Below, one piece after another: positions 28,396 to 60,157 of a stretch of DNA of 64,000 nucleotides (position 1 is its first letter; each line of letters starts with the position of its first letter). The notes under the pieces are model-generated. The model searched no databases. It saw only the letters and a program-made list of their open reading frames with translations, and was not told the DNA's origin. This DNA is from Candidatus Omnitrophota bacterium (GTDB lineage Bacteria > Omnitrophota > Gorgyraeia > Gorgyraeales > Gorgyraeaceae). The stretch is from positions 16,988 to 80,987 of the forward strand of contig JAUSEX010000052.1 in the NCBI GenBank assembly GCA_030649895.1. The letters are read 5' to 3'. Position numbers and translations under genes: made by a program.

Positions 28396-29247
28396 TTACC
28401 TCTCAATATTTGAAAACAGCACTTCTTTTACAGGCGCAAACTTAAAATCTTCTAAAAGCTGTTTTAATTTCTTAAGATTATTATTTATCCCTACATATAT
28501 CCTGAATTTATTTATCGGATCTATCTTTATCTTAGGCTGATTTGTGTCAAATTCAGGAGGGTGCAAATATACCATCGCAGGATAGCCATCCTGATTCAGT
28601 TTGTTAATACACAAGCGAGTAAAGCTATATGGGTAAAGCCTGAAATATCCTCCGCCGGCTACCGGGATATTTATTTTCAGAAATTTATAAGTAGCTAATG
28701 GAAATTCTAAAAGCCTTTGGCCTTTTTCCTGGCGCAGGACATATGGAAATCTCGGGCTTCCTATCATTCCATATTTATCGTGCATTACAGGATATATCGA
28801 AGAATCATACATAATCCCGTTTCTCAATAAAACATCTATTACCCACTGGGAATCAGGTGTTATTGAAAAACAGGCAGCCCTGTGGCCTAATACAGATTGG
28901 CCAGTGATGTTCTTAAGCGTATTTATAGACTTCTTGAGCTCGGCTTCAAACTCATCCGGAGATTGTTGATAAGCGCGCATATGCGACCATCCATGCGTCG
29001 CTATCTCATGGCCCTTTTCCGCTATCCTCTTTACCATGTCAGGATGCCTTTGTGCAACCCATCCCAGGATAAAAAATGTAGCAAGAGTCTTTTTGGTTTC
29101 AAGAAGACTAAGTATGGGTTCTATATTCCTTTCAATCCTAGATTCGTACCCGTCCCATTCGGAACGTTTAACATACTTTTCCATATTGGTGTTATGAAAC
29201 CACTCCTCTACATCAAAACTTAGCGCATTTATAATTTTATTTTTCAT
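28396..29247 (-). CDS. Polysaccharide deacetylase family protein (CE4 with a DUF3473-type C-terminus).
   Basis: ALSFDVEEWFH ... GHEIATHGWSH are NodB-homology motifs. Confidence 0.75.
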   Translation of the reverse strand: MKNKIINALSFDVEEWFHNTNMEKYVKRSEWDGYESRIERNIEPILSLLETKKTLATFFILGWVAQRHPDMVKRIAEKGHEIATHGWSHMRAYQQSPDEFEAELKKSINTLKNITGQSVLGHRAACFSITPDSQWVIDVLLRNGIMYDSSIYPVMHDKYGMIGSPRFPYVLRQEKGQRLLEFPLATYKFLKINIPVAGGGYFRLYPYSFTRLCINKLNQDGYPAMVYLHPPEFDTNQPKIKIDPINKFRIYVGINNNLKKLKQLLEDFKFAPVKEVLFSNIER

Positions 29248-29253
29248 TTTAAT

Positions 29254-30354
29254 TTAAAAGGTATCCCAGTCGCCAAAGCTAAGAAACCAGTTTTTGCCAT
29301 TAAGAAATACCGTTTTATCAGCAACGTCCTGATTGGCCCTGCCGACTAAAATAAGTTTTCTGGGATTCAGTCTTTCAGGCGCCTTTACAAAACCTGTATT
29401 TTTTAATGAGCTATAATATTTATTATTTTTAAGGCATCCGGTAATGCACAAATCTACGCCATCTTTTTTGAAATTATCAATGGCCTTTGTAACTAGTGCT
29501 TCGATAATATTATCTTTTCCAGGTAATACAAAATAATCCATGATAATTCCTATTTTCAGAGAAAACACATCAGCTGTCCTTGTTACTATATAACCTGCCA
29601 ACTCTCCGTTCTTTAAAGCGCCAAAAACATGATATCTCTGATTCGGCCTTAACATAAACCTCCAGTTTAAAAACGCGCTATCCCTTGGTACCATTACCTT
29701 CGCCTGAGCCATAGCCTTTTTCCATAAAAAATCAAATTCCGGGCCAAAAGAATTCTTTGTTTCTATCTTTACGCTATTGGATTTTCTCTGCATACCAAAA
29801 TGGTAGAACCACATATAATACAAAGGACTTAAAATAAAATAAAACAACAATGCCAGCAAAGGATTTTTAACAATCTTTTTTATCGTATTTTTTATATTCA
29901 CTGGCCTTACTAACAAAGAAATTGTCGCAATAGACGAAAATCCCAATTTATTAATAAAACCTGGCCTGGATTTGTCATTAGGAAATGCGAAAGAAAATGT
30001 AATGCCCTGTTTTTTAAGTTCCTCTATAGAAACCCTGCCTAAGTTCTTAAATATGCCTCTATTTCTATAGTCAGCATGGGTTGTAAGGTGAAGCACAATG
30101 CCTGTCTTATAGATATTCTCGTTTACCTTAAGCCGCTCTAAAACATTTGGAAAATGCCCTATTACTTTTTCCTTATCTTCAGCTATAAAATTAACAGAAC
30201 CTCCTCCTGTATTATCGCGATATAACCAGTTCCAGAAATCCGAAGTATAGATATCTTGCGACGCTGTCCAGTAGCCGCTAAAACTCTCCTTCAAGAGCTG
30301 AAGTATCTTATCCCTGTCTTCTTCTATGCCGGCTTTCTTTATATCCCAGCCCAT
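29254..30354 (-). CDS. GNAT / FemAB-like acyltransferase.
   Basis: ...VIGHFPNVLERLKVNENIYKTGIVLHLTTHADYRNRGIFKNLG... is an acetyl-CoA-binding-like core. About 366 aa, typical of FemAB-related glycan-modifying acyltransferases. Confidence 0.5.
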   Translation of the reverse strand: MGWDIKKAGIEEDRDKILQLLKESFSGYWTASQDIYTSDFWNWLYRDNTGGGSVNFIAEDKEKVIGHFPNVLERLKVNENIYKTGIVLHLTTHADYRNRGIFKNLGRVSIEELKKQGITFSFAFPNDKSRPGFINKLGFSSIATISLLVRPVNIKNTIKKIVKNPLLALLFYFILSPLYYMWFYHFGMQRKSNSVKIETKNSFGPEFDFLWKKAMAQAKVMVPRDSAFLNWRFMLRPNQRYHVFGALKNGELAGYIVTRTADVFSLKIGIIMDYFVLPGKDNIIEALVTKAIDNFKKDGVDLCITGCLKNNKYYSSLKNTGFVKAPERLNPRKLILVGRANQDVADKTVFLNGKNWFLSFGDWDTF

Positions 30355-30549
30355 AACATCCTCTCTATGCTATAACCCAACTCCAATCCCTCGCCCCTTA
30401 TCTCTATATGCCTCATCATTATCCAGTCTCCCTTGTGCGTTAATGCGCCTCACATCTTGCGCATATCGAGCTTTCTCATCCATATTACCGTTCAAACTAA
30501 TCTTCCCCCAGATATGCCACACATCTCTAATCCTATAAAATATTATACT

Positions 30550-31323
30550 TTACCTGATTCCGTAATAAATTCTATACCAAATATATTCAAATAATGTAGG
30601 ATGACTCCATAATTTGGACAAGCCTTCAGGATATGGTTTAACATCGATCTGATTTTTTAATATATCATTTATTGCCTTTTTTAGTAACTCTATTCCCTCT
30701 GCCAGTTGAAGATATGGGTATGTGACAAAATTATCCTCATTAGAAAGAGAGATTGTTCCCTGTTCAAGTATATCGCCGGTATCAATGCCCGCATCGACAA
30801 AATGCACTGTAACCCCGCAATCTTTTTTATTACTTTCAATCAACGCCCAGTAAGCTCCATGCACGCCCCTGTACAAAGGAGTAATCCCGGCATGCAAATT
30901 GATAAACTTGGCAGGGATGCTTATCAATATCCTGTCCAAGATGATCCTGGTCCCGTTAATCACAACCACGGCAGGATTTATCTTTTGCAGGATAGCCTTT
31001 GTCTCATCAGAATTCGCGGACGCTACCCTGATTACCCTGGCGCTATCGATAGGAGAGTTTTCCATACCTGATTCCTGTTTCAATCGCATAATGCGTTTTC
31101 GTGAAACTAACCTGAGGTACGGAACCGCTATCAGCTGAAAAAGCGCCTGGCCGAATACCTTAAAGAAACCAATCTTTTTAATCCTATTTTTTAAAAATAA
31201 TACTTTTGATATGCGGCGCTCTATTATGACTTTTTCTATCTTAAAACTGCTTTTCAGGGCATTATAGATAATATTTGTGGATTCTCCGTCCCCTGCCAGT
31301 ATAACAACAGTTTTATCTTCCAT
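30550..31323 (-). CDS. Formyltransferase family protein (Fmt / ArnA N-terminal domain-like).
   Basis: FINLHAGITPLYRGVHGAYWALIE matches the formyl-transferase catalytic motif (H.S.LP.YRG). Confidence 0.7.
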   Translation of the reverse strand: MEDKTVVILAGDGESTNIIYNALKSSFKIEKVIIERRISKVLFLKNRIKKIGFFKVFGQALFQLIAVPYLRLVSRKRIMRLKQESGMENSPIDSARVIRVASANSDETKAILQKINPAVVVINGTRIILDRILISIPAKFINLHAGITPLYRGVHGAYWALIESNKKDCGVTVHFVDAGIDTGDILEQGTISLSNEDNFVTYPYLQLAEGIELLKKAINDILKNQIDVKPYPEGLSKLWSHPTLFEYIWYRIYYGIR

Positions 31324-32314
31324 GATTTATTTCCCTGATTACCTTATCCGAGAGCTCTCTCATATTAAGGCTCTCTATCCCATAAAGCTTTTTCATCTTC
31401 AGATAGTGGTCCAGTATCTTCTTCAGGAACATGATATTTTTATCCATATTGATTCCAAAATTATGAGGATGCCACCAGAGATGATAAACTTCCCCTCTTT
31501 TGGCCGCATGTGCAATGCCAGATAAGATGCGCTTTAAACGCAATGGTTCCAGTATTTTCAATGAATCGGAATAAGGCCGGAGAAACCTACTCGAGGGTAT
31601 ATTGCATGGAAATTCAGAAACGACCCTATCTACAGGATAACAATTATGCCCGGAGATGTTAATATAGGCATCCATCAACCTCAGCGCCTTTCTGAATAAC
31701 GGCTTATTTTCCTCGTTTTTTGCCTCATAAATCCAAAAGGCCTCATTGCCCCTGTAAGCCCTTATGCCCATCTCTCTGCATATCGATATATAATCCCTGT
31801 TAAACTGATTTCTAGGGAAAACCAGGCTCGTAATATTCAGGTTATATTTCTTCGCGGCCCTTACCGCGGCATCCAAATCATCCCTGAACGTATCGATATC
31901 CTGGCCTTTCTCCAAGCAATAATAATGCGAAAACGTATGACTCCCTATTTCCTGAGACGGGGCATGAGAAGCTATCATCTTTATCAAAGAAGGCGCGTAA
32001 TGAAACGGGTCTTCTTTTTCATCAGCGCCGATACTATCGATATGGCTGTAAGGAGAAAGTCCCGCGTTAAGATAACCCGGCTTCCGGCTTGGCAAACCCT
32101 TGATTAATTCATCGCGTGTCTCGAAAAATAAAAAACCTACAACCGCCCATGTCGCGTGAATGCCATATTCCTCAAATAATCTTAAAAGCGCGGGCACAAC
32201 AGAACGCACCCCTAAGATATTTTCTTTATAACTTCCCAGCGTCCTTTTATCGCGCACGCCCCAGTAAAGCTCAAAATCCAGGGAAACGACAAAAACACCT
32301 TTTTGTTTTATCAT
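31313..32314 (-). CDS. Polysaccharide deacetylase family protein (NodB / ArnD-like).
   Basis: VVSLDFELYWG ... GSHTFSHYY are NodB motifs. Confidence 0.7.
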   Translation of the reverse strand: MIKQKGVFVVSLDFELYWGVRDKRTLGSYKENILGVRSVVPALLRLFEEYGIHATWAVVGFLFFETRDELIKGLPSRKPGYLNAGLSPYSHIDSIGADEKEDPFHYAPSLIKMIASHAPSQEIGSHTFSHYYCLEKGQDIDTFRDDLDAAVRAAKKYNLNITSLVFPRNQFNRDYISICREMGIRAYRGNEAFWIYEAKNEENKPLFRKALRLMDAYINISGHNCYPVDRVVSEFPCNIPSSRFLRPYSDSLKILEPLRLKRILSGIAHAAKRGEVYHLWWHPHNFGINMDKNIMFLKKILDHYLKMKKLYGIESLNMRELSDKVIREINHGR

Positions 32315-32348: not shown

Positions 32349-33044
32349 TTAAAAAAATTTGACCTTAAAAATAGCTATGAGCGCGGGAATAATATCCATG
32401 GCTTTTACCTTCTTCCCTTCCCTGGCGCTTCTGGCCTTATAGCATACAGGCACCTCTTTGATGCTAAACCTCTTCTTACACAGCTTGCTCACTACCTCAA
32501 AATCGAACGCTATTCCGGTGGATTCTATGTCTATTTTCCTGAAACTTGATGCCCTATACAGCCTGGTGCCTATAATATCCGTAAACCTTCTTCCATAAAA
32601 AAGATTTATTAAAAAAGTGGTGGCAAGCGTGCCCAGATAATAAGGCCTTTCTTTTACAAGCCTGCATACCGATATCAGATTTTTTTTAATACCATAAAGC
32701 CTTGAACCAAACACGGCATCCAGATTATCTTTTTCTGCCAAATTCAGCATCTCATGCACCGATCCTATATCATATTCAAGATCAGAATACTGCACATAGG
32801 CAAATTCCCCTTTAGCAAGCGATATGCCTGTCTTAACAGACCTGCCATATCCATAATTCTGCGGTTGAAACACAATCTTGATAGAATTGTCATTTAAAGC
32901 CTTTAGTATCTCCCTGCTGCCATCCGTAGAACAGTTATCAATAACAATTATCTCTTTTTCTATATTTAAATTCTTCGCCTCTTCTATAGCCTTCAGAATA
33001 GTGACTTTCTCATTAAAACAGGTAACAATAATAGTTAATTTCAT
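32349..33044 (-). CDS. Glycosyltransferase family 2 (polyprenyl-phosphate sugar transferase-like, DPM1/ArnC-type catalytic domain).
   Basis: LTIIVTCFNEKVTILKAIEEAK...IIVIDNCSTDGSREIL...DADLEYD-like (YSDLEYD). Confidence 0.8.
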   Translation of the reverse strand: MKLTIIVTCFNEKVTILKAIEEAKNLNIEKEIIVIDNCSTDGSREILKALNDNSIKIVFQPQNYGYGRSVKTGISLAKGEFAYVQYSDLEYDIGSVHEMLNLAEKDNLDAVFGSRLYGIKKNLISVCRLVKERPYYLGTLATTFLINLFYGRRFTDIIGTRLYRASSFRKIDIESTGIAFDFEVVSKLCKKRFSIKEVPVCYKARSAREGKKVKAMDIIPALIAIFKVKFF

Positions 33045-34354
33045 ATTTTATTTTTGAAAAAAGTATTAACAGTTTTTTCTATGTAATCTAACATTGGCTT
33101 CGTAAGTCCGGGATAAACCCCTATCCAGAAAAGATTGTTCATAACTAAATCTGTATTTTTTAAACCTCCGGATATCCTGTATTTTGCATTTTTATATGCC
33201 GGCTGTTTTGTTAAATTTCCGCCAAATAACATTCTTGTGGCAATCTTATTCTCTTCCAGATAATTTACAATATCCGCTCTATTAAACGGCGCTGTATTTT
33301 TTACAAGAACAGGGAATCCAAACCAGCTTGGCTCAGAATACTTCTCTGCCTTTGGAAGCATAAAATATTTCTCATATTTTTTAAAAACCGAATGAAGAAA
33401 TTTAAAGTTTTTCTTCCTCGCTTCAATAAACCCGGATAATTTTTCTAACTGAGCAACCCCTACAGCCGCCTGCATATCAGTGACTTTAAGATTATATCCT
33501 ATATGAGAATAGACGTATTTATGATCATAACCTAAAGGCAAATCTCCAAATTTCTGAGAAAATCTCTTTCCACAAGTATTATCTCTTCCCGTCTCGCAGT
33601 AGCATTCTCTTCCCCAGTCACGAAAAGATATTATTATCTTTCGCAGCAAAGGATCATTTGTTAAAACAGCTCCGCCCTCTCCCATAGTTATCATGTGAGG
33701 AGGATAAAAACTTGAAGTAGAGATATCTCCGAATGTTCCGGTATATTGTCCTTTATATTTCGAACCCAATGAATCGCAATTATCTTCTAACCACAGTAAA
33801 TTATATTTCTTAACGATCTTCCTTACACTATCTATGTCTACAGGATTCCCAAGCGTATGAGCTGTAAAAATTGCTTTTGTTTTTCTTGTAATGGCTTTTT
33901 CTATTTTCTCTGCCTGAATGTTATACGTTCCAAGCTCCACATCAATAAACACAGGCACAAGACTATTTTGCAATATAGGATTTAAAGTAGTAGGAAAACC
34001 ACAAGCAGTAGTAATAACTTCGTCTCCGGGCTTTAATTGTCTTTTTTTTAATAAAGGTGATGTCAAAGCCGTCACTGCCAGAAGATTTGCGGACGAACCT
34101 GAATTAGTAAGCAAGCAATGTTTTATTCCTAAAAACCCTGCCAAATTTCTTTCGAATTTCTCGGCATACTTTCCTGCTGTCAGCCAGAAATCAAGAGATG
34201 CGTCTATCAGATTTACGATTTCTTTTTCGTCATATACACGTCCAGCATAGCTAATCCTTGATTTGCCCGGTATAAACTTCTCATGTTTCTTTGATCTATA
34301 GAATCTTACAACTTTATTTAATATATCTTTTCTTATAAGTTTCTCTGTATTCAT
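33041..34354 (-). CDS. rfbH: CDP-6-deoxy-D-xylo-4-hexulose 3-dehydrase (E1, RfbH/DdhC-like, DegT family, PMP-dependent).
   Basis: LIDASLDFWLTAGKYAEKFERNLAGFLGIKHCLLTNSGSSANLLA ... FYPPHMITMGEGGA (His in place of the PLP-Lys, as in RfbH) ... DWGRECYCETGRDNTCGKRF (FeS Cys cluster) ... FWIGVYPGL. Confidence 0.85.
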   Translation of the reverse strand: MNTEKLIRKDILNKVVRFYRSKKHEKFIPGKSRISYAGRVYDEKEIVNLIDASLDFWLTAGKYAEKFERNLAGFLGIKHCLLTNSGSSANLLAVTALTSPLLKKRQLKPGDEVITTACGFPTTLNPILQNSLVPVFIDVELGTYNIQAEKIEKAITRKTKAIFTAHTLGNPVDIDSVRKIVKKYNLLWLEDNCDSLGSKYKGQYTGTFGDISTSSFYPPHMITMGEGGAVLTNDPLLRKIIISFRDWGRECYCETGRDNTCGKRFSQKFGDLPLGYDHKYVYSHIGYNLKVTDMQAAVGVAQLEKLSGFIEARKKNFKFLHSVFKKYEKYFMLPKAEKYSEPSWFGFPVLVKNTAPFNRADIVNYLEENKIATRMLFGGNLTKQPAYKNAKYRISGGLKNTDLVMNNLFWIGVYPGLTKPMLDYIEKTVNTFFKNKI

Positions 34355-36120
34355 TTTTTATCCTCTGGCAAGATGTCTATAAACATATTTGACTTAAGTT
34401 CTTCACGCGATAAATAAGGCTCCTGGTCTTCTACAGGCCTATTGACAGATAATTTAGGAACAACTTTCATATTTGAACTTATATTTATTTCTAAAAATCC
34501 TGAACGCTTATTATTAAAAAGCTTCTTAAGCGTTCCATCGATTTTATTTGCCTGATTAATTTTCCAAACAGGTATCCTGTAAGCGGAAACTACGCTCTGA
34601 AAATCAGGGCAGCTATACCCGAGAACAGTTGATTGAAACCTGGAATTAAAATATTGTTCCTGAAACTGTTTAACCATCCCGTAACAACGATTATTCAATA
34701 ATATTATTTTAACCGGCAGTTTATAGTGATAAATCGTCTGAAGCTCTTGTATATTCAACTGGAATCCGCCGTCTCCGCTTATGGCTATAATAACCTTGCC
34801 AGGGTTAGCAAAGGAAGCGCCTATTGCCATAGCTAAGCTGGACCCCATTGCGCCTGCGCCTCCCTGGGTAAGAAATCTCTGGGTTTTCTTTATCTCCAAT
34901 GTTTGAGCGGCCCACATCTGATTCTGGCCCACATCCACACAAACTACACTAGACTTCGGCAAAAATTCTGACAGCCTGCTCATAAAAAAATTAGGTTCTA
35001 TCTTGCTGCCAGAGGAGACACTGTACGAAGGATATTTCTTTTTATACCCTTTGACTAATTTTCTCCAGGACTCTATTTTATTTCTATCATAACCACTTAT
35101 TTTCTTATTTATTAAAGTTAAAAAATAATTTATATCGCAATTTATAGGAATATCTGCTTTTCTCTTATTGTTTAATTCATGTTCGTCTATATCTACATGA
35201 ATAATTTTCGCTCCTCTTGCAAAAGTTTCTGGTTTCGTCCCTGTCTGCCTGGTATCTAACCTTGTGCCTAAAGCCAGCACTAGATCAGCGTTCGCTACTG
35301 TCAGATTAGCGTAACGATTCCCATAAGTGCCTATCATGCCTAAAAACGCATCGCTATCATGCGTAAAGCCGTCAATGCCCATTAAAGAAGAAACAACAGG
35401 TATTTCTGTATGCTTTATAAATTTTAAAAGCTCGCTTTGCGCATTTGACAACCTGAGACCTCCACCTATAAGGACAACAGGCCTTGATGAAAATTTTATT
35501 GAATTAATAACCTTTTTGATTATATTGCTATCTGTTTTCTTGTATAATTCATCAAAAGTATCTGCGCGAAAAGACTTTAACGATTTTGGTTTTATCTCGG
35601 CTCGCTGTATGTTCATAGGCATATCTAGCAATACAGGGCCTGGCCTGCCGGATTTAGCAATATAAAATGCCTTTTCAAGATAATATCTGATTTTATCCGG
35701 TTCAGTAATAAGCACAGCGTACTTTGTAATCGGTTTTACCAAATTCACAATATCTGTTTCCTGAAATCCTACCTGTCTTACAGGTTTCTTAAATTTGAAT
35801 TCATAAGTATTGACTTGTCCCGTTATAAATACGCAGGGAATAGAATCAAAAAAACAACTGGCAATACCTGTTATCAAATTGGTAGCCCCTGGCCCGCTAG
35901 TTGCCATTGCCACGCCTATATTGCCGCCAGAGCGCGAATAACCTTCTGCGGCAAACGCAGCTGCCTGCTCATGATGCATAGATATGGCCTGAATATCTCT
36001 TCTTTTATACAAAGAATCCAAAAGATGCGTAATAGAGCCCCCGCAAACCTCAAAGACATGAGTTACGTCTTTTGAAACAAGAAAATTAATTACATAGTCT
36101 GATAATTTCATAGCCGTCAT
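34351..36120 (-). CDS. Thiamine pyrophosphate-dependent enzyme (acetolactate synthase large-subunit fold), candidate YerE-like branched-chain sugar synthase.
   Basis: N-terminal TPP-PYR domain ...HEQAAAFAAEGYSRSGGNIGVAMATSGPGATNLITGIA... and C-terminal TPP-binding domain GDGGFQLNIQEL... Located in an operon with the CDP-dideoxyhexose genes. Confidence 0.75.
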   Translation of the reverse strand: MTAMKLSDYVINFLVSKDVTHVFEVCGGSITHLLDSLYKRRDIQAISMHHEQAAAFAAEGYSRSGGNIGVAMATSGPGATNLITGIASCFFDSIPCVFITGQVNTYEFKFKKPVRQVGFQETDIVNLVKPITKYAVLITEPDKIRYYLEKAFYIAKSGRPGPVLLDMPMNIQRAEIKPKSLKSFRADTFDELYKKTDSNIIKKVINSIKFSSRPVVLIGGGLRLSNAQSELLKFIKHTEIPVVSSLMGIDGFTHDSDAFLGMIGTYGNRYANLTVANADLVLALGTRLDTRQTGTKPETFARGAKIIHVDIDEHELNNKRKADIPINCDINYFLTLINKKISGYDRNKIESWRKLVKGYKKKYPSYSVSSGSKIEPNFFMSRLSEFLPKSSVVCVDVGQNQMWAAQTLEIKKTQRFLTQGGAGAMGSSLAMAIGASFANPGKVIIAISGDGGFQLNIQELQTIYHYKLPVKIILLNNRCYGMVKQFQEQYFNSRFQSTVLGYSCPDFQSVVSAYRIPVWKINQANKIDGTLKKLFNNKRSGFLEINISSNMKVVPKLSVNRPVEDQEPYLSREELKSNMFIDILPEDKK

Positions 36121-37067
36121 TATTTATACAACGCAATATTTTTCTTAAACCAGTTAATATCTTTTTCCAGCCCCTGCCTTAAGCTATGTTTCGGCTCCCA
36201 GTTCAATAATCTCTTGGCCTTGGATATATCTGCCTGCCAGCATAATGGTTCTATCCTGGGATTATCTGTCTTTCCCCATTCCGGCTTAACCTTGCCGCCT
36301 GTCAATTTGATTGCAATATCTACAACATCTTTTACCGTATGCTGTTTCCCCGAGCCTATATTAAATACTTCGCCTTTAACCTTATTTTTATTATCAATAA
36401 CCTTTTCATAAGCGCTGGTAACATCTTCTATAAAAATAAAATCCCTGACAGAATCGGACGACGACAGTTTTGGATTTGTAAATTTTAAGCATGACAATAT
36501 CAAAAAGGAAACCAACCGGCTTTTCTCTTCATAATATCCATAAGGAGAAAATAGCCTGAGAGTTACCATGGGTATGTGTTCTTTTTTAGCAGCCGCATGG
36601 CAATAAGAAAAAGCAGCAGCTTTAGTAACCCCATATTCATTAACCGGCTCCAATACATCTGTCTCTTTCATCGGCTTTGACTTTATGCCATATTCTGAAG
36701 ATGAACCGGTATTTATAAACAATTCTAATCCTACGCCTTTCGAGGCATTAACTAGATTTACTGTCCCTGCAAAATTTGCCTCTGTTATTTTCAGCGCATC
36801 ATTTTGAAAAGAATAACCGCCATATACAGCAGTATGTATTACAATCTGCGGCTTAATTTTTTTTATTATCTTTTTTAATCTGGCTGAATCCTTTAGATCA
36901 GCCGAGTATTCAGAAACATCTTTTAATATATCCCGAATTCTCCATTTATTAGACCCTGCCCGCGTAAATATGGATATCCTGGAGCCTTTTTTTAAAAAAT
37001 GTCTTGTCAGATTCGCGCCTATAAAACCAGTCGCGCCTGTAATTAATATCTTTTTATTTTTTAACAT
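36120..37067 (-). CDS. NAD(P)-dependent sugar epimerase/reductase (SDR-extended; CDP-abequose/paratose synthase-like).
   Basis: KKILITGATGFIGANLTRHFLKKG ... YGVTKAAAFSYCH (YxxxK). Confidence 0.8.
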   Translation of the reverse strand: MLKNKKILITGATGFIGANLTRHFLKKGSRISIFTRAGSNKWRIRDILKDVSEYSADLKDSARLKKIIKKIKPQIVIHTAVYGGYSFQNDALKITEANFAGTVNLVNASKGVGLELFINTGSSSEYGIKSKPMKETDVLEPVNEYGVTKAAAFSYCHAAAKKEHIPMVTLRLFSPYGYYEEKSRLVSFLILSCLKFTNPKLSSSDSVRDFIFIEDVTSAYEKVIDNKNKVKGEVFNIGSGKQHTVKDVVDIAIKLTGGKVKPEWGKTDNPRIEPLCWQADISKAKRLLNWEPKHSLRQGLEKDINWFKKNIALYK

Positions 37068-38047
37068 CCTAATCTTTTACTGTACCAATCTATGGCTTTT
37101 TTTAAGCCTTCCTCCAGAGTATATCCTGGCGCCCATCCTAAAACTCTTCTGGCTTTAGCGGAACATAGATACTGATGTTTTATCTCATACCGTGCTTGAT
37201 TTAAAATCTTATAATCCGGCTTTCCGCCTATTAAATCATATATCTTTTTCACCATCTCAATTACCGTGATCGGGTTTTCATCGCTAAAATTAAACGCTTC
37301 GCCGCATAGTTTTAACTTCTTCATTTTTTCAGCCAGCGTTATATAGCCATTGACAATATCTTCCACATATACATAATCTCTGGTAAATTTTCCATCGCTT
37401 CTTATAATAAACTGTTTATCGCTAAGAGCACAGCGCATAGCGTCAGGGATAAGTCTTGAAAAATTAGTATCTCCCGGGCCAAAGATATTGCCGCAGCGCG
37501 TTACGCATACAGGAACCTTGTAAGTATTCCAGTAAGTATAACATATAAGATCCGCGCAGCTTTTAGAAACATCATAAGGATGATTGCCTTTTAAAGACGC
37601 GTCTTCTTTATAAGGTAGAACTTTATGACTGCCATACGCTTTATCGCTGGATGCCGCTACTATCGCTTCTATAAATTTTTTATCTCTTGAAGCTTCTAAT
37701 ATATTCCAAGTACCTTCTATATTAGACTTAAATGTTATGACAGGTTTTTTATTTGCCTCGCCTACTATCGCCTCAGCAGCTAAGTGAAAAATAACCTGAG
37801 GCTTATATTTATCAATGAGACTTTTTACCAAGCCAAGGTTAGATATATCGCCTTTTACGCATACTATCCGACTCCTCAATCCAGTTAATAAAGAATCCGG
37901 TCTATTTTTTACCTTATCTATGCCAATAATATCCGCGCCGCAATCCAATAAGGTTTTTGTAAGATTAGAGCCCAGAAAACCTTCGAAACCTGTAACAAGA
38001 ACTTTTTTATTTTTCCAATATTTATTCGTCATTTCCAGACCTTCCAT
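37061..38047 (-). CDS. rfbG: CDP-glucose 4,6-dehydratase-like (RfbG).
   Basis: YWKNKKVLVTGFEGFLGSNLTKTLLDCGADIIGI ... YDVSKSCADLI (YxxxK). Confidence 0.75.
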   Translation of the reverse strand: MEGLEMTNKYWKNKKVLVTGFEGFLGSNLTKTLLDCGADIIGIDKVKNRPDSLLTGLRSRIVCVKGDISNLGLVKSLIDKYKPQVIFHLAAEAIVGEANKKPVITFKSNIEGTWNILEASRDKKFIEAIVAASSDKAYGSHKVLPYKEDASLKGNHPYDVSKSCADLICYTYWNTYKVPVCVTRCGNIFGPGDTNFSRLIPDAMRCALSDKQFIIRSDGKFTRDYVYVEDIVNGYITLAEKMKKLKLCGEAFNFSDENPITVIEMVKKIYDLIGGKPDYKILNQARYEIKHQYLCSAKARRVLGWAPGYTLEEGLKKAIDWYSKRLGC

Positions 38048-38823
38048 ATAGCTTTATCACTATCCCACATATGATTTAATATCCCATATTCCCTGGGGGT
38101 ATCCAAGCATTGCCAGAAACCGTTATGCTCATACACGCCAAGCTGTTTATCCTTGACCATCTTAGGCAATACTTCGGTTTCTAATATAAGATCACCGCCC
38201 GGCTTGAAATATTTCTCGATTACACCCTTGTCAAAAAGCATAAATCCGCCATTTATCAGCCCCATTCCCACGTTAGGCTTTTCACTAAATTCCGTAACTA
38301 TATTACCTGATATTTCCATTTCGCCAAATCTACCAGACGGATGAACTCCGGATACTGTCCCTAAAACCTCCGCATCCTTATGTTTTTTTATCAAAGCTTT
38401 TATATCTATATCCGCTACGCCGTCTCCATAGGTAACACTGAACATGTCGCAGTCTTCAAGGTATTTTCTTGCGTTCCATATCCTTGCGCCTGTATAAGCG
38501 TTTTCGCCTGTCTCAACAAGTGTAATATTCCAATCTGATTCGTCATGCATATCATGATACTTTACAGAAGCCGGATCATCCAGTTTTATAGTTATATTCG
38601 AAACCTTGGCTTTATAGTTCAGAAAAAATTCTTTTATGACCCACCCTTTATACCCCAGACATAATACAAAGTCTTTTATGCCATAATGCGCATAAATTTT
38701 CATAATATGCCATACAACAGGCATATTGCCTATGGTCAGCATGGGTTTTGGCAGTACCTCAGAAACATCCCGTATCCTGGTACCTTGTCCGCCGCACAGT
38801 ATAAGCGCTTTTATTTTTGACAT
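38029..38823 (-). CDS. rfbF: Glucose-1-phosphate cytidylyltransferase (RfbF).
   Basis: MSKIKALILCGGQGTRIRDVSEVLPKPMLTIGNMPVVWHIMKIYAHYGIKDFVLCLGYKGWVIKEFF is a near-canonical RfbF N-terminus. Confidence 0.85.
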   Translation of the reverse strand: MSKIKALILCGGQGTRIRDVSEVLPKPMLTIGNMPVVWHIMKIYAHYGIKDFVLCLGYKGWVIKEFFLNYKAKVSNITIKLDDPASVKYHDMHDESDWNITLVETGENAYTGARIWNARKYLEDCDMFSVTYGDGVADIDIKALIKKHKDAEVLGTVSGVHPSGRFGEMEISGNIVTEFSEKPNVGMGLINGGFMLFDKGVIEKYFKPGGDLILETEVLPKMVKDKQLGVYEHNGFWQCLDTPREYGILNHMWDSDKAIWKVWK

Positions 38824-40145
38824 TTTATCATTCCTTTCATCTTTTCTTCTACCGCCACAATCATAGGCGCTGATAATATTATATAGTAGGGTATGAGCGG
38901 AACGCCATACCGCCCATAACCATATATAAGGCTATATATCAGATTAGTATAGCATATTAATAAAAATAAAAAAATCCATTTCCTCCACATATCTTTCTTG
39001 ATTAACATCCCGCATATAGAGAGTAAAATCAATATATACGCCAAAGACCTGAAAACACCCCTTATCAGGGAAAGCAGGGAGTTGCCATAAGAAAGATTGG
39101 TTATCTTGTCTATAAGATACCTCTGGTCTATCAATATCGACAGGTAGGTAAACTGCGTCATCTTCAGCAGATCAAGAAACGAGACAGCTATGAATTTGAC
39201 GGGCCTTTTCATTATTTTAGATATCATGATATTTTTTATTTCTTCCGGGCTATATCCTTTGCCCTCCAGTTCCGGCAATATCTTTTCTCTGGCAATATCG
39301 TCTTCTTTATGCAAAAAATCCCTCGGGTTATCAACTATATCAGGGAATACCCGCTTTCCCAGATTTTCGGACATAATAAAAACCAGGTTCTGTTTAAAAT
39401 CATTAAAACCATAATCGAGCTTCTGGACCTTGACGCATAAAGGTGTTTCGCTGCCTCCTCTTAACGAAAAACTCCCGCATTTTAAATAATTCCTGGCCAT
39501 CCACGGTATTGTTAAAATCACAAAAGCCATGGTCATAACAGCTATTTTTATAATAAAACCTGCGCGGAATCCTGATTTAAATCTTAAAAATATAAGCCAT
39601 AAAATCAAAATAAAGATGAATGGCAGCATCACTGCCTTACAAAGCGCTGTTATGCCTAACATGCCTCCTGCCAGAAGATAATAAGCTGTCCTATTTGTAA
39701 AATAAATCTTAATACAGCTAAACACTAATACGGAAAGCAGGAACGTAAACAGCGTTTCTGACAATATATAAGCCGGGTAATTGGCGAGCGTGGGGAATAA
39801 AGCCGTTATAGCCATGGAATACACGGCTATCTTTTCACAAAAAATAAGCCTGGCTGTTTTATATACAAAAATAGCGGTTAATAAGAATAATATTATCTGG
39901 GCAAGCTGGACAAAAAAATAGTCGTGATCGAATAACAAGTATATAAGCGCTAAAAAAGCCGGATACGCGGGCTCCCTTCCCATCGCTGGCACGCGGCTAT
40001 CATCCACATATCCATGGCCTTTCGCGAGATTAAAACCTATTGAATCATATCCATAAGAATCAGGCTGCATCGGCTCCCTGGTTAATAATAATAACGCGAA
40101 GCTGAAAACAAAAGACACGCCTAAAATATAAAGAAATTTTTTCAT
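38811..40145 (-). CDS. Integral-membrane glycosyltransferase, GT39/GT83 (ArnT / PMT-like).
   Basis: More than 10 predicted TM segments. N-terminal loop ...DSIGFNLAKGHGYV...REPAYPAFLALIYLLF is typical of ArnT/PMT-family lipid-linked sugar transferases. Confidence 0.6.
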   Translation of the reverse strand: MKKFLYILGVSFVFSFALLLLTREPMQPDSYGYDSIGFNLAKGHGYVDDSRVPAMGREPAYPAFLALIYLLFDHDYFFVQLAQIILFLLTAIFVYKTARLIFCEKIAVYSMAITALFPTLANYPAYILSETLFTFLLSVLVFSCIKIYFTNRTAYYLLAGGMLGITALCKAVMLPFIFILILWLIFLRFKSGFRAGFIIKIAVMTMAFVILTIPWMARNYLKCGSFSLRGGSETPLCVKVQKLDYGFNDFKQNLVFIMSENLGKRVFPDIVDNPRDFLHKEDDIAREKILPELEGKGYSPEEIKNIMISKIMKRPVKFIAVSFLDLLKMTQFTYLSILIDQRYLIDKITNLSYGNSLLSLIRGVFRSLAYILILLSICGMLIKKDMWRKWIFLFLLICYTNLIYSLIYGYGRYGVPLIPYYIILSAPMIVAVEEKMKGMIKCQK

Positions 40146-41301: not shown

Positions 41302-42202
41302 ATAGGCCTCTTATATGAGAAAGCTTGCAGAATGTCACGCCGATCTCACGGCAATATCCTATTATGGATTCAAGATCGCCAATAAGCCTGTTGCAATCTT
41401 CCTGATTTCTGGAATAGGGACTCGCTCCTGGATAAAACTCCATACTGTGGAACATCATGTTCAGTACAATAACGTCAGATGAAGAATACTTACTGATAAA
41501 TTTATGGACAAGCCTTTTCATATCATGCGGACTATTAAAAGACGGCCTGAGCCAGACAGGCCTGTTGAAAAATTTGTATACGCTATTCAGAAAAATTATC
41601 GAAACCGGTACCTCCAGTAAAATCTTATCCCCGCTTTTATTCTTTATAAAATACGGCTGGTCAGAGAATTTTGTAAAATTCGGGCCTCCTATATTACGCC
41701 AGGAAACGCCAGGCGTAACGCTTGTATCCACTAGATATCCCAGGGACGCGAGAGACGACGCGGTATTATCGCCAAACCCGAATTTACCGCCCCTGTAAAC
41801 CTTGGAGCTACAGCCTATCTTTTCCTCAAACAATCTTGTAAGATTAGACAGCTTTTCCTTTTCTACGCTGATATCCAGATTATTGGAAAATTCCGTGGAA
41901 TATGTCCCGGCGTATTTTAAATATTTCTTTTCAGGCCCTATGTATTCCGGATGCAGATGAGTCCCTAATTCGCTCTCATCACGGATAGGTTTCAGGATCC
42001 TTACTGATTCATCATCTTCGAGAACTTCGGTTGTCAGAAGATATGTCCCGATGGCTCCGTATTTTTTAAATACAGGCTGTAATACATTTGGGATACTTTC
42101 GGTTACGGATTTAAAAGCCAGAGGAGATGACTTTGTCCAATCAGTAGAGTGGTCGGCTTCTGTATCTATAGTAATCACTAAATATACGGCTGGTTTGTTC
42201 AT
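41294..42202 (-). CDS. Hypothetical protein, possibly carbohydrate deacetylase-like.
   Basis: ORF of 302 aa in operon context. VITIDTEADHS...ELGTHLHPEY are weak NodB-like features. Confidence 0.4.
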   Translation of the reverse strand: MNKPAVYLVITIDTEADHSTDWTKSSPLAFKSVTESIPNVLQPVFKKYGAIGTYLLTTEVLEDDESVRILKPIRDESELGTHLHPEYIGPEKKYLKYAGTYSTEFSNNLDISVEKEKLSNLTRLFEEKIGCSSKVYRGGKFGFGDNTASSLASLGYLVDTSVTPGVSWRNIGGPNFTKFSDQPYFIKNKSGDKILLEVPVSIIFLNSVYKFFNRPVWLRPSFNSPHDMKRLVHKFISKYSSSDVIVLNMMFHSMEFYPGASPYSRNQEDCNRLIGDLESIIGYCREIGVTFCKLSHIRGLYA

Positions 42203-43101
42203 TTTTTCAGTATAGCGCAGTAATTATACCCTAAATACTTTATAAACCGCTTGTCGCCTAAAAATCTGGCAAGAGGTTCAAATATTTTTGAAATAACAAC
42301 TGTTAGCTTCAAAGACACGGTAAGTAATAGCGGATACGGCGCGAATACGGTAGTAAAAGACCGCTGAATAATAAAACCGGCATTTTGAAATTCCCTATTC
42401 CACCTGCATGGCGTATGGCTTATCATTTCTATAAAAGAATTCCTGTAAGCCCCATGAGGCCCGGGAAACGGGAAATACTTATAATTCTCTTTCAATTTGG
42501 AAAAACTCTGGACAGTTATTTTGCCGACATCATGACAAGCGTTGTTTCGTCTGAATATCCTCTCTTTTACCAGTCCAAAAAATTTCACGGCGAAATAAAG
42601 ATAAAATTGAAAGAACGCGTAAATGCGCTCCATAAAATTAGGGACCACCAATATGACCATGCCCTCCTTTTTGACAACCCTCTTCAGCTCGCTTAACGCC
42701 TGGGCCTTACTCTTAAGATAATGCATGACATATGAAGAAAAGATTATATCAAACGTTTCATTCTTAAACGGCAGGCACTCTATCGAACATGCGGAAATAG
42801 AGATATTAGCCGCGCTCATTTTTGAAACAAGCCTCCTGGCGCTGTCAAGGCCTACGGTATGTGTTTTAGCGTCTTTCGAATACAAATCCGAGGCCACGAC
42901 CCTTTTTGAGATATTGGATATCAAGTAAGATGCGAATCCATTGCCGCAGCCTATATCCAAAACCACGCCCGGTTCATTCAGCCCGGCGTATCTTAAAAGA
43001 TTTCCTACCTCAAGGCCTCTCATAAGATAATAACCGTTCCATGGCTGCTCTCCGGCCGCGGCCTTAATACTTTTACCTACGATTGAATTTATATCAAGCA
43101 T
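42199..43101 (-). CDS. Class I SAM-dependent methyltransferase.
   Basis: VLDIGCGNGFASYLIS (motif I) ... FDIIFSSYVMHYL. Confidence 0.75.
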   Translation of the reverse strand: MLDINSIVGKSIKAAAGEQPWNGYYLMRGLEVGNLLRYAGLNEPGVVLDIGCGNGFASYLISNISKRVVASDLYSKDAKTHTVGLDSARRLVSKMSAANISISACSIECLPFKNETFDIIFSSYVMHYLKSKAQALSELKRVVKKEGMVILVVPNFMERIYAFFQFYLYFAVKFFGLVKERIFRRNNACHDVGKITVQSFSKLKENYKYFPFPGPHGAYRNSFIEMISHTPCRWNREFQNAGFIIQRSFTTVFAPYPLLLTVSLKLTVVISKIFEPLARFLGDKRFIKYLGYNYCAILKK

Positions 43102-43112
43102 GCTTTAAATAC

Positions 43113-44585
43113 CTATTTAATTTTGCAATCCGGGTTATAATACCTGTTAAATCTAAGCAGAATAAATATCTCAAACGGGAAGGCAAAAAATCTATTTTTA
43201 AGCCTGAATTTTGCCAAATTATAAAAAAACTTTTTTCCAAAAGTCCGCAATAATGACGTGCTTTTTGAATGAGTCAGAAGCTTCCCGTATTTATCTATCC
43301 TGTAAAAAAGCTCGCTCGTGTTCTTATCCGCCCACGGCAGCCAGGTAATCGGAATAGACCTTCCAAACGCGTCATAGATCTCATAATCCTCTGTCTTTTG
43401 AGGCAGTTTAAATCCCTCTTTTATGGCAAGCTTATAACCGTCTGTGCCGGGAAAAGGCAGAAATGTCTGATGCGTTACAACTATATCCGGTATTATTCTT
43501 GCCAGTTCTAAGCCAAGATTTATAGTGTCCTTTATCTCCGCAAGTGTTTCCGTAGGATAGCCTAATATAAAAGAACTACCTACCGCTATATTTCTATATT
43601 TTGAAAGAATCTTGAACTTTTCCAATATCATTTTTTTATTTGTATTTTTATTCATAAGAGAAAGTACTCTGTCATTGCCGGATTCCACGCCCGCATAGAC
43701 CTTCCTAACGCCTAACTCATTTATTTTTTTCATGGAATCTTCTGTAATCTCGTCTACTCTGAGTTGAAATTCCGCGCAAGTAATGCCTATTTCTTTTAAC
43801 CTGGAGAGTATTTCAAATGACCTGTTTCTATCTACAAAAAAATGATCGTCTGTAAACGCTATAGCTTCTATGCGGCACGTTTCCTTAATTCGCTGTATAT
43901 CGGAAATAACCCTTTTTATGGAATGCGCCCGCCATCTTCTCTTATTAAAAACTTTATTATAGCAAAAAGAACAATCATGAGGGCATCCTCTTGATGTTAT
44001 GTATATAAAACCTTTTGTGTTTCTGCCAGGAAACTCAATCAAACATTTTTGCATATCCACAAGCGACCAGTCTACCCGAATCTCATCCAGATCTTTAATA
44101 AAATCACGTTCTTTATTGAATATGAGCTTCCCGTCTTTTTTATATCCTATGCCATCTATGAGCTCAAGGGGCTTACCCTGCGATAAGGCATCAGCGAGTT
44201 CCAGCGCAGTTTTCTCACCCTCACCTATGGCTATAATGTCTACATAACTCTCTCTCAGAGTTCCTTCCTGTATAAGCGATGGGTGACATCCACCCCAGAT
44301 TATTAACATTCCCTCATTTAACTCTTTAATCTTCCTTGATAAAATCGCTGAAAATTTTGTCTGCGGCCCTGTCAAAACCGAGAATCCTATAAAAAGATAA
44401 TCCTCCTTCAATATCTCTTTTGCTTTTTCGTCCGCGAATGACCTGTCTTCGAATAACTTCGATGAAATTATCTCTAATTTCACGTCATAACCGTTGTCTT
44501 TTAAATAAGAGCCTATGTAAAGCAGGCCAAGAGGATTATAGACAGATTCATTTTCAATTTTTAATAGAAGTATTTTCTTTTTCAT
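43113..44585 (-). CDS. B12-binding radical SAM protein (class B radical SAM, methyltransferase-like).
   Basis: N-terminal cobalamin-binding-like domain. SRGCPHDCSFCYN is the CxxxCxxC radical SAM cluster motif. Confidence 0.8.
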   Translation of the reverse strand: MKKKILLLKIENESVYNPLGLLYIGSYLKDNGYDVKLEIISSKLFEDRSFADEKAKEILKEDYLFIGFSVLTGPQTKFSAILSRKIKELNEGMLIIWGGCHPSLIQEGTLRESYVDIIAIGEGEKTALELADALSQGKPLELIDGIGYKKDGKLIFNKERDFIKDLDEIRVDWSLVDMQKCLIEFPGRNTKGFIYITSRGCPHDCSFCYNKVFNKRRWRAHSIKRVISDIQRIKETCRIEAIAFTDDHFFVDRNRSFEILSRLKEIGITCAEFQLRVDEITEDSMKKINELGVRKVYAGVESGNDRVLSLMNKNTNKKMILEKFKILSKYRNIAVGSSFILGYPTETLAEIKDTINLGLELARIIPDIVVTHQTFLPFPGTDGYKLAIKEGFKLPQKTEDYEIYDAFGRSIPITWLPWADKNTSELFYRIDKYGKLLTHSKSTSLLRTFGKKFFYNLAKFRLKNRFFAFPFEIFILLRFNRYYNPDCKIK

Positions 44586-50504: not shown

Positions 50505-51632
50505 TCAAACACTTGTAAATTTACGCTTAAGGCGCCCTAAAAATGCGACCTTGGCTAATTTTTGGCGCTGTTGCCTGTAAAGACGCCGTAGCTGCGAAGA
50601 TGCTGATTTTTTAAAAAACAATATTGTATGCAAATTTATTACTTTGTCTGCCCAGGAAAATTTATAACTTTCAGCTCCCAGCAATAGATCAAATTCATCA
50701 ATGCCGCGCCCATACGAATTCTTAATCAAATTTACCAAAAGAAGCTTACCGGGTGAAAACGCGCTTAATGCAGGATTGAAAGCCGGCGCATAATAATAGT
50801 AACGGTTGTCGTAAGTAAAGCCAAGATGCATGGCTGCAATTTTCTGGCCAACCTTTAAACATGAAAGCTCTATCCTGCCTGAGCCAGACAAATCTTTAGC
50901 AAGAGCAACATATCTTGCCTTTGCGTTATCCTCATTAAATTGGCTCTTAAACCCTTTTTCTATTGATCTATGCTGATGAAATTCAAAAAATTTAGGAATA
51001 GCTGACTTAATTTGATCATAACTGACAAGGGTTTCTAGCGACACCTTTCCAAAATTTCTGAGTCTCTTCTCTTGCCATCTTAAATTGTTTTTTAGTTTTT
51101 TACTCAATTTTTTTTGAAAATATTCTTCCCATGTTGAATATTGCTTAAGATCCAAAATAACTGAGACGCCCCGCTTTTCTTTGACGTTTATCCATTGATA
51201 ACCCTGGCAATTAAACCACTGCATGTGATTTGGAGAATTTTCAGGGATATTGATAAATTCCGCCCAATCCCATGTGTGCGAATACCTGTTGATTTCATCA
51301 AAAATCATGGTAAAGCATTCATCTGCCTTCTTTACAATCAAAAAATCCATATAATCGGAAACACCGGTTGCTATAAACTGCAATTTTCTATTCTTTGTAA
51401 AATTACCAAACCTGCTATTTTTAATCATTATAGGAGCTGCGGCAATCAATTTTCCGCTGTCCCTAATTAATATTACAAATAACTTATGGCCCTGACCGAA
51501 ATATTCCCACCAGGTTGCAAGCCATTCAAAAGTCAAATAAAATGTATTAAAAGAACTTTCTTCCAGGGCTTCGTTCCATTCTTTCTTTAAGGCTTTAAAT
51601 TTTTCAAAATTATCAACTATTTTAACTTCCAT
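50505..51632 (-). CDS. GNAT / FemAB-like (BioF2-like) acyltransferase.
   Basis: 375 aa with an Acetyltransf_6-like C-terminal half (...IAAMHLGFTYDNRYYYYAPAFNP...GKLLLVNLIKNSYGRGIDEFDLLLG). Confidence 0.5.
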   Translation of the reverse strand: MEVKIVDNFEKFKALKKEWNEALEESSFNTFYLTFEWLATWWEYFGQGHKLFVILIRDSGKLIAAAPIMIKNSRFGNFTKNRKLQFIATGVSDYMDFLIVKKADECFTMIFDEINRYSHTWDWAEFINIPENSPNHMQWFNCQGYQWINVKEKRGVSVILDLKQYSTWEEYFQKKLSKKLKNNLRWQEKRLRNFGKVSLETLVSYDQIKSAIPKFFEFHQHRSIEKGFKSQFNEDNAKARYVALAKDLSGSGRIELSCLKVGQKIAAMHLGFTYDNRYYYYAPAFNPALSAFSPGKLLLVNLIKNSYGRGIDEFDLLLGAESYKFSWADKVINLHTILFFKKSASSQLRRLYRQQRQKLAKVAFLGRLKRKFTSV

Positions 51633-56888: not shown

Positions 56889-56891
56889 CTT

Positions 56892-58550: not shown

Positions 58551-58556
58551 ACCTAG

Positions 58557-60145: not shown

Positions 60146-60157
60146 TATATTGCTCCT

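Follow-up and report, generated by a model that had tools for sequence, protein, structure and literature searches.

We examined a 64,000-nucleotide stretch of contig JAUSEX010000052.1 from an uncultured Candidatus Omnitrophota bacterium (hereafter, the window) and find that seven genes at 32349–40145 on its minus strand probably form a translationally coupled module that makes and installs a cytidine diphosphate (CDP)-activated 3,6-dideoxy-4-C-branched hexose of the yersiniose type. At the core of the module lie five open reading frames (ORFs) at 33041–38823 (minus strand), each of whose ends overlaps the next gene. Read 5′ to 3′ on that strand, they encode a glucose-1-phosphate cytidylyltransferase (RfbF/DdhA-like, 264 aa, 38029–38823), an NDP-hexose 4,6-dehydratase (328 aa as the longest ORF, 37061–38047), an extended short-chain dehydrogenase/reductase (SDR, 315 aa, 36120–37067), a YerE-like thiamine diphosphate (ThDP)-dependent carboligase (589 aa, 34351–36120), and an RfbH/E1-type CDP-4-keto-6-deoxyglucose 3-dehydrase dependent on pyridoxamine 5′-phosphate (PMP) and a [2Fe-2S] cluster (437 aa, 33041–34354). 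A first reading of the DNA, made from its letters alone (the original prediction), had placed these five genes in one operon at exactly these coordinates, and the overlapping ends bear it out. The overlaps continue on both sides: the gene for a polytopic glycosyltransferase of the GT-C type (444 aa, 38811–40145) overlaps the rfbF start by 13 nt, and that for a small soluble family 2 glycosyltransferase (GT2, 231 aa, 32349–33044) overlaps the rfbH stop by 4 nt. The operon probably extends past the five-gene core to include both. A promoter and terminator scan for the operon boundaries gave counts equal to the shuffle expectation. All genes in the window lie on the minus strand (GC content ~39%), and its proteins correspond to NCBI entries MDO8603516 to MDO8603543, with RfbH as MDO8603532.1.

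Conservation of the Cassette across Bacteria and Archaea

The distribution of the ThDP gene and its neighbors was surveyed using one genome per GTDB species. These species-representative genomes hold at least 565 relatives of the ThDP enzyme, and the best 80, at 50–70% identity, are from Omnitrophota, Methanoregula and Methanothrix-type archaea, Elusimicrobiota, Geobacter, Nitrospirota, Paenibacillus, Clostridium, Pelotomaculum, and others. In nearly all of these 80 loci, rfbF, the 4,6-dehydratase gene, and rfbH adjoin the ThDP gene. Because this synteny is conserved in ~80 genomes from many phyla, the functional link of the ThDP enzyme to rfbF/G/H is strong. The pathway originally proposed, a CDP-3,6-dideoxyhexose route with a YerE-like enzyme leading to a branched sugar, is thus supported both by the synteny and by the tests directed against it, which came out in its favor.

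Several observations on these loci stand apart from the pathway itself. The YerE-family/RfbH/RfbF cassette is present in metagenome-assembled genomes of methanogenic archaea (Methanoregula, Methanotrichaceae, Methanomicrobia; our loci L007, L011, L020, L022–L024, L026–L028, and L032), with 56–67% identity to the window enzyme, a distribution that implies transfer between the two domains and, possibly, archaeal envelopes that carry branched dideoxy sugars. Omnitrophota loci repeatedly have B12-binding radical S-adenosylmethionine (SAM) enzymes and SAM methyltransferases close to the cassette (15 copies in 11 loci: the window, at 43113–44585 and 42199–43101, and L002, L013–L015, L018, L019, L025, L031, L032, and L056); these may C- or O-methylate the sugar.

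The ThDP Enzyme and Its Predicted Reaction

The 589-aa protein contains the three ThDP-enzyme domains PF02776, PF00205, and PF02775, all above their cut-offs, together with the cofactor motif GDGGFQ...LLNN (pattern GDG-X(24-27)-NN) and a catalytic Glu51 in an MHHEQ motif. Among solved structures it scores 424 bits against 5AHK, compared with 357 bits for plant acetohydroxyacid synthase (AHAS) and 297 bits for E. coli IlvB (6LPI). The sequence of 5AHK matches P0121 with 100% identity and a P. protegens protein with 83%, and the entry is reported to be PpYerE (Hampel et al. 2018). A structure of PpYerE exists (PMC12247030).

Sequence signatures agree with this structural match. An insertion, TGQVNT[YH]E.K...RQ.GFQE, is common to the window enzyme and all YerE proteins and absent from IlvB, IlvI, plant AHAS, and Gcl; the window enzyme and YerE also carry GDGG instead of GDGS and a Phe at the AHAS specificity Trp site (plant W574). 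In a neighbor-joining tree of 45 sequences (572 columns, 200 bootstraps) with three AHAS and one Gcl as references, the window family, the proteobacterial YerE proteins, and two paralogues from sugar clusters form a clade apart from AHAS with 100% bootstrap support. The phylogeny that the original prediction named as its check thus places the enzyme with PpYerE and Yersinia YerE and not with IlvB/AHAS. No small-subunit gene adjoins the ThDP gene, and because both flanking genes, those for the SDR and RfbH, overlap it, an adjacent AHAS small subunit is impossible. Six lines of evidence therefore agree that the protein, judged by its sequence, is a YerE-like enzyme and not an amino-acid acetolactate synthase.

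The window enzyme shares with the characterized YerE-like lyases (PpYerE, YpYerE, ErwE, JanthE, and MMAR_2332) the three-domain ThDP fold of the DC superfamily, the insertion that follows the TGQV motif, the GDGG...NN motif, the Phe in place of the AHAS Trp, and the association with deoxy-keto-sugar genes (PMC12247030, PMC9306805). It differs from them in its ~40–42% identity (~40% to Yersinia YerE) and in its membership of a separate, very large clade. By analogy with these lyases, it is predicted to catalyze carboligation of a 2-keto acid onto a ketone acceptor to yield a tertiary alcohol. As a separate observation, the two sugar-cluster paralogues of the tree (L032:2644–4452 and L049:12707–14494, 37–38% identical to the window enzyme) branch within the YerE-lineage clade without the typical insertion sequence and lie in the same sugar clusters as its homologues; they may represent a second kind of sugar-branching enzyme.

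Proposed Pathway and the Identity of the Donor

The protein families, catalytic residues, phylogenetic placement, and synteny are read directly from the sequences. From them we infer which nucleotide, donor, electron source, carrier route, and acceptor serve the following pathway, what the SDR does in it, and the structure of its product. RfbF would form CDP-glucose from glucose-1-phosphate and CTP, and the SDR-type, non-canonical 4,6-dehydratase would convert it to CDP-4-keto-6-deoxyglucose. RfbH/E1, with its PMP and [2Fe-2S] cofactors, would then deoxygenate C-3, drawing two electrons from the general ferredoxin/flavodoxin pool, as SpnQ can. The ThDP enzyme would decarboxylate a 2-keto acid and add the acyl anion to the C-4 ketone of CDP-4-keto-3,6-dideoxyglucose, giving a tertiary alcohol with an acyl branch (probably acetyl, from pyruvate), whose carbonyl would be reduced by the 315-aa SDR, probably with NADPH, as a nonorthologous replacement of YerF. 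In the last step, the GT2 enzyme would attach the sugar to polyprenyl phosphate, from which the GT39-like GT-C enzyme would transfer it, outside the membrane, to a glycan or a protein.

Pyruvate, and with it a C2 branch, is the most likely donor in this scheme because the aldolase genes of clusters with longer donors were not found among the window ORFs of at least 150 aa. A longer or functionalized 2-keto acid, as used by ErwE, MMAR_2332, and JanthE, would instead give an erwiniose- or caryophyllose-type longer branch. Donor preference does vary widely among YerE-like enzymes (PMC12247030), the window enzyme is only ~40% identical to the characterized pyruvate-using YerE, and methyltransferases and a B12-radical SAM enzyme lie three to five genes upstream. 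However, pyruvate is the default donor, and neither aldolase nor acetaldehyde dehydrogenase genes, which are typical of long-branch clusters such as those of the ErwE/MMAR_2332 type, whose aldolase genes are described in PMC9306805, were found among the window ORFs searched (at least 150 aa). We therefore regard the longer donor as unlikely and retain pyruvate.

An SDR That Is Not YerF

The 315-aa protein scores 160 bits against the Pfam Epimerase family and is an extended SDR; its top matches in the PDB (100–113 bits) are 4-epimerases and reductases, including GDP-6-deoxy-4-hexulose reductase and CDP-tyvelose 2-epimerase. Its identity to Yersinia YerF is 20% with an E value of 0.054, which rules out the reading of this protein as YerF itself. 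The catalytic YxxxK motif is present as YGVTK, and no acidic residue follows beta-2 (FTRAGS); together these features suggest NADPH use and a reductase role.

The gene neighborhoods point to what this SDR replaces. A window-type SDR (at least 38% identity) flanks the ThDP gene in 41 loci, in each immediately upstream, while true YerF orthologues (34–39% identity) directly follow the ThDP gene in eight loci (four from Paenibacillus and one each from Geobacter, Nitrospirae, Zixibacteria, and an unclassified source), and the two types never occur together. In several of the other loci a third class, of ~350 aa, is adjacent. Mutual exclusion across loci is the pattern expected of alternative enzymes for the same tailoring step, and we propose on these sequence grounds that the SDR is an NADPH-dependent side-chain ketoreductase, a functional analogue of YerF that is not its orthologue.

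The same protein could alternatively act at C-4, as a ketoreductase or epimerase for a classical 3,6-dideoxyhexose (paratose-, abequose-, or tyvelose-like), with the ThDP enzyme on a parallel branch and two sugars as products. The solved relatives listed above and the lack of orthology to YerF fit such a role. On the other hand, a 4-reductase would compete for the substrate of the ThDP enzyme, and an SDR that holds a fixed place right before the ThDP gene in 41 loci without ever accompanying YerF behaves as one of two alternatives for one step. The two-sugar arrangement is accordingly quite improbable in our judgment, and side-chain reduction remains the proposed role.

Predicted Activation and 4,6-Dehydration

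The first two enzymes of the core differ in how closely they follow the yersiniose model. RfbF scores 295.1 bits against TIGR02623, marginally below the equivalog cut-off of 300.25 and with full-length coverage; the next-best family reaches 87 bits, 208 bits lower, and the protein is 42% identical to Yersinia canariae DdhA (E = 6e-66). For the dehydratase, an ATGA overlap indicates a probable start at 38032, which gives a protein of 323 aa. Its best family is TIGR02622 (CDP-glucose 4,6-dehydratase) at 217 bits, below the cut-off of 278, followed by TIGR01181 at 181 bits, and its top PDB match is 1WVG, a CDP-glucose 4,6-dehydratase (142 bits). The NAD-type Rossmann motif GxxGxxG with an Asp ending beta-2, an Asp-Lys dyad in SSDK, which we take to be of the CDP type, and a YDVSK motif are all present. 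Yet this protein is only 29% identical to Yersinia DdhB, while clusters of the Paenibacillus and Geobacter type retain a DdhB that is 56–65% identical to that of Yersinia. By sequence, then, the window dehydratase is non-canonical and of another lineage than DdhB.

RfbH and the Missing E3 Reductase

RfbH scores 712 bits against NF011936 (cut-off 423) and 541 bits against the Y. pseudotuberculosis E1 structures 3BCX and 3BB8, and it is 52% identical to Yersinia DdhC. His220 replaces the Lys that binds pyridoxal 5′-phosphate (PLP), and Cys193, Cys251, Cys253, and Cys261 form the C-X57-C-X1-C-X7-C [2Fe-2S] motif, whose numbering reportedly follows Agnihotri et al. 2004. All five residues are invariant in 66/66 RfbH orthologues, confirming the assignment of an E1 homologue with His for the PLP-Lys and an Fe-S Cys cluster made at the outset. 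Conservation is absent at Cys257 and at the second Cys of the Yersinia "CC" pair, which are reportedly not cluster ligands (Agnihotri et al. 2004). A set of four Cys for the cluster plus the His is the pattern described for E1 enzymes (review PMC8987622).

E1 enzymes of the yersiniose clusters are paired with a dedicated E3 reductase. As references we used the clusters of Y. canariae (L085) and Pseudomonas protegens (L087), retrieved via their YerE proteins; both read ddhD(E3)-ddhA-ddhB-ddhC-yerE-yerF, with an E3 composed of Fer2, FAD_binding_6, and NAD_binding_1 domains. At the window locus no such partner is encoded: tblastn with the Y. canariae and P. protegens E3 proteins against the window and 81 related loci (the ThDP gene ± 10 kb in each) gave no match at E ≤ 1e-3, and a six-frame scan for the plant-type 2Fe-2S motif was empty for the window and returned nothing real in the related loci. 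The absence of an RfbI-like E3 from the window, noted in the original prediction, therefore stands and applies to the whole window clade. Nor is there a reductase, by Pfam annotation, among the ten most recurrent unassigned neighbor families, which include GT2s, FkbM methyltransferases, GT9, GT10, ManC, GtrA, and an SDR.

Electron input to RfbH is still expected because the Fe-S ligands of E1 are invariant. General ferredoxin/FNR or flavodoxin/FNR pairs can stand in for E3 with SpnQ, the E1-type PMP/[2Fe-2S] 3-dehydrase of the spinosyn forosamine pathway, which like the window RfbH has no partner reductase gene (PMC8987622). SpnQ differs in acting on a dTDP-2,6-dideoxy substrate and in belonging to an actinomycete secondary-metabolite cluster, and the window RfbH is far closer to the CDP-specific E1 (541 bits). 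By analogy, the ferredoxins or flavodoxins that serve the Omnitrophota host in general may also supply the electrons to RfbH. We take most hosts of the cassette to be anaerobes with plentiful low-potential ferredoxins.

The lack of an E3 in the window and the 81 loci could also mean that RfbH is no deoxygenase of this kind, being instead ColD-like (hydrolytic and glutamate-driven) or an aminotransferase, so that the ThDP acceptor would be another keto or amino sugar. SpnQ does show aminotransferase activity in the absence of a reductase (PMC8987622). But the invariant His220 and four cysteines argue that the cluster is in use, the presumed abundance of low-potential ferredoxins in the mostly anaerobic hosts offers an electron source, and ColD is without the cluster, while for SpnQ general ferredoxin/flavodoxin systems replace E3 (PMC8987622). 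We consider a ColD-like or aminotransferase function very unlikely and keep C-3 deoxygenation as the predicted reaction.

A Candidate Lipid-Carrier Route for Transfer of the Sugar

The 444-aa protein at 38811–40145, named "glycosyltransferase family 39 protein" by NCBI, has ~8 transmembrane segments by hydropathy and matches PF13231 with 45.5 bits (cut-off 26.1), making it a PMT_2/GT39-like membrane glycosyltransferase. An AlphaFold2 (AF2) model built from a 39-sequence alignment reached a predicted local distance difference test score (pLDDT) of 93.1, and Foldseek matched it best to ArnT (5F15, with undecaprenyl phosphate bound) and to the AglB/STT3 oligosaccharyltransferases (E ~5e-5, TM score 0.42–0.53), with further matches to PglB, ALG3/9/12, and PMT. 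As modeled, the protein has a GT-C fold, and its Asp29, a candidate for the conserved acidic residue that GT-C enzymes have in the first external loop, is invariant in the 39 homologues. GT-C enzymes such as ArnT, AglB, ALG, and PMT use polyprenyl-phosphate-linked donors.

At the other end of the module, the 231-aa GT2 has no transmembrane segment and scores 93.9 bits against Pfam PF00535. Its NCBIfam matches are weak (AglJ, 68 bits; PpgS, 43; dolichyl-phosphate hexose transferase, 39), and it is 34% identical over 94 aa to the GtrB-like GT2 of Yersinia. PDB sequence searches with the GT2 and PMT_2 proteins gave nothing useful, and a single-sequence AF2 model of the GT2 had a pLDDT of 39.7, too low for a fold assignment. 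Orthologues of this GT2 (46–69% identity) follow rfbH in L012, L021, L025, L031, and L053, and a PMT_2 protein adjoins the cassette in the last three of these, while L012 has a Wzy_C protein instead; three further PMT_2 homologues may share a contig with ThDP homologues, since their longest contigs are of equal length. Downstream of the yersiniose genes, Y. canariae has genes for GtrA, a GtrB-like GT2, and a large DUF7024 membrane protein, a set analogous to the GT2 and GT-C pair of the window.

Based on sequence and context, we propose that the GT2 is a polyprenyl-phosphate sugar synthase (Dpm1/GtrB/PpgS-like). The GT-C fold matches, the co-occurrence of GT2 and PMT_2, and the Y. canariae parallel therefore lead us to infer a lipid-carrier route, in which the GT2 would make a polyprenyl-phosphate-sugar and the GT-C enzyme would transfer it outside the membrane, and which suggests lipid-carrier-mediated decoration of a surface glycan. 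ArnC/ArnT, GtrB/GtrC, and PpgS/Rv3779-type systems likewise combine a polytopic GT-C protein and a small GT2; the window differs in that no GtrA-like flippase was found in it and in that the class of the GT2 is here a candidate assignment.

Comparison with Yersiniose A and Weight of the Evidence

The window shares its biosynthetic core with the yersiniose A pathway of Y. pseudotuberculosis O:VI and relatives, namely a cytidylyltransferase, a 4,6-dehydratase, E1, a YerE-lineage carboligase, and an adjacent SDR. Unlike the yersiniose A clusters, it is without an E3, a YerF orthologue, or a close DdhB; its gene order differs as well, in that the SDR gene precedes the ThDP gene and rfbH comes last. 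Its membrane transferase is of the GT39/PMT_2 type, vs. DUF7024 in Y. canariae, and its setting is an XrtA/PEP-CTERM-type exopolysaccharide (EPS) locus of an uncultured Omnitrophota, vs. Yersinia and Pseudomonas. The description "yersiniose-like branched sugar" is justified and supported by the shared core; "yersiniose A" is not established because the SDR is not YerF, the dehydratase is non-canonical, and the donor keto acid is a predicted one.

A number of points weigh against the branched-sugar pathway as we have drawn it. The case is built from sequences, so that the pathway is known here from its genes and by a predicted product. CDP is the presumed nucleotide rather than an assigned one, because RfbF and the dehydratase both score below their NCBI equivalog cut-offs. 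The SDR could epimerize rather than reduce, as its closest solved relatives include 4-epimerases, and an E3 could be encoded elsewhere in the genome, the search having spanned the 64-kb window. The polyprenyl-phosphate class of the GT2 draws on weak matches and context. For the ThDP enzyme, the window family joins the proteobacterial YerE specifically at 57% bootstrap, the separation from AHAS comes from neighbor joining, not maximum likelihood, with three AHAS references, and the 39% identity to plant AHAS is near the 41.7% to PpYerE.

The identity to plant AHAS, together with a top NCBIfam match to TIGR00118 (biosynthetic AHAS, 516 bits) and the JGI label "acetolactate synthase large subunit" on many homologues, are what could be said for an ordinary biosynthetic enzyme (IlvB/IlvG/IlvI) placed by chance in an operon making a plain 3,6-dideoxyhexose, a reading that has next to no chance of being correct and is refuted at the level of sequence evidence by a score under the curated TIGR00118 cut-off (538.35), PpYerE as the best solved relative, the YerE-specific insertion and the Trp-to-Phe change, the 100% bootstrap clade apart from AHAS, overlapping neighbors that leave no room beside the gene for a small subunit, and rfbF/G/H adjacency across bacterial and archaeal phyla.

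Genomic Setting of the Module

The sugar module sits inside an XrtA/PEP-CTERM-type polysaccharide (EPS) locus. The same region encodes an XrtA-system polysaccharide deacetylase (TIGR03006, 339 bits vs. a cut-off of 276), as well as two XrtA/PEP-CTERM-like amidotransferases and stp2-like GT4 enzymes that all score under their family cut-offs, and many glycosyltransferases, methyltransferases, and radical SAM enzymes populate this very long polysaccharide-biosynthesis region. Downstream of the GT2 gene, 28396–32314 encodes a deacetylase-like protein (333 aa), a formyltransferase-domain protein (257 aa), a GNAT protein (366 aa), and the XrtA-system deacetylase. This formyltransferase and a DegT-like protein at 51622–52662 hint that another part of the polymer contains an N-formylated amino sugar. 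At 55300–61896 lies a second activation/modification module with a CTP_transf_3 cytidylyltransferase, a classical SDR, a methyltransferase, a CDP-glycerol glycerophosphotransferase-like protein, a D-2-hydroxyacid dehydrogenase, a HAD phosphatase, and a radical SAM/SPASM protein, which may add a glycerate- or glycerol-phosphate-type substituent.

The two asparagine-synthase-type amidotransferases are paralogous (16724–18667 and 46419–48314; ~70% DNA identity over short stretches) and flank the sugar operon, one on each side, with the copy at 16724–18667 stranded in a defense or mobile-element island that occupies 1–27200 inside the polysaccharide locus. This island encodes three AbiEii toxins with AbiEi/DUF6088 partners, four DUF4143/AAA_14 ATPases, two Bro-N proteins, two PLD-like nucleases, a YhcG nuclease, and a C1 peptidase, and it contains DNA repeats of ~84% identity (11686–12662/15777–16703, 9866–10768/23517–24417, and 7429–7937/15620–16163). 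In an independent Logan assembly, the same sequence is interrupted at ~27232, the edge of the island.

Novelty and Significance

YerE-like lyases are a recognized subclass, of which genome mining had found more than 200 in deoxysugar clusters by 2024 (Krug et al. 2024, as cited in PMC12247030). The core chemistry of the module is as expected, and earlier mining had already turned up similar clusters, so that the advance is incremental. Less ordinary are the cluster architecture without an E3, the non-YerF SDR, the replaced dehydratase, and the GT39-type transferase, and the breadth of the clade, which includes methanogenic archaea, is unusual. As a reading that is less likely than not, we raise the possibility that these features define a distinct and very widespread form of the pathway, independent of E3 and YerF, in which another dehydratase and another SDR have taken their places, and which makes an undescribed 4-C-branched 3,6-dideoxyhexose delivered to the cell surface via polyprenyl phosphate and a GT-C enzyme. 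The ThDP clade of that form, at 50–70% identity, spans Omnitrophota, methanogenic archaea (Methanoregula, Methanothrix), Elusimicrobiota, Geobacter, and Firmicutes.

Only a few cultured bacteria are known to have branched-chain 3,6-dideoxy sugars, and YerE-like enzymes are wanted as biocatalysts for chiral tertiary alcohols. The analysis corrects the common misannotation of these genes as "acetolactate synthase large subunit" and reveals a large clade of the YerE lineage in uncultured anaerobes, archaea included. Loci of this clade as a rule encode E1-type deoxygenation but no E3, its partner in textbooks; the YerF step appears to be filled by at least two unrelated SDRs, and the sugar may reach the surface by a lipid carrier and a GT-C enzyme. 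If the widespread form that we suggest is real, branched dideoxy sugars would be common on the surfaces of uncultured anaerobes and archaea and not a rarity of a few Proteobacteria.

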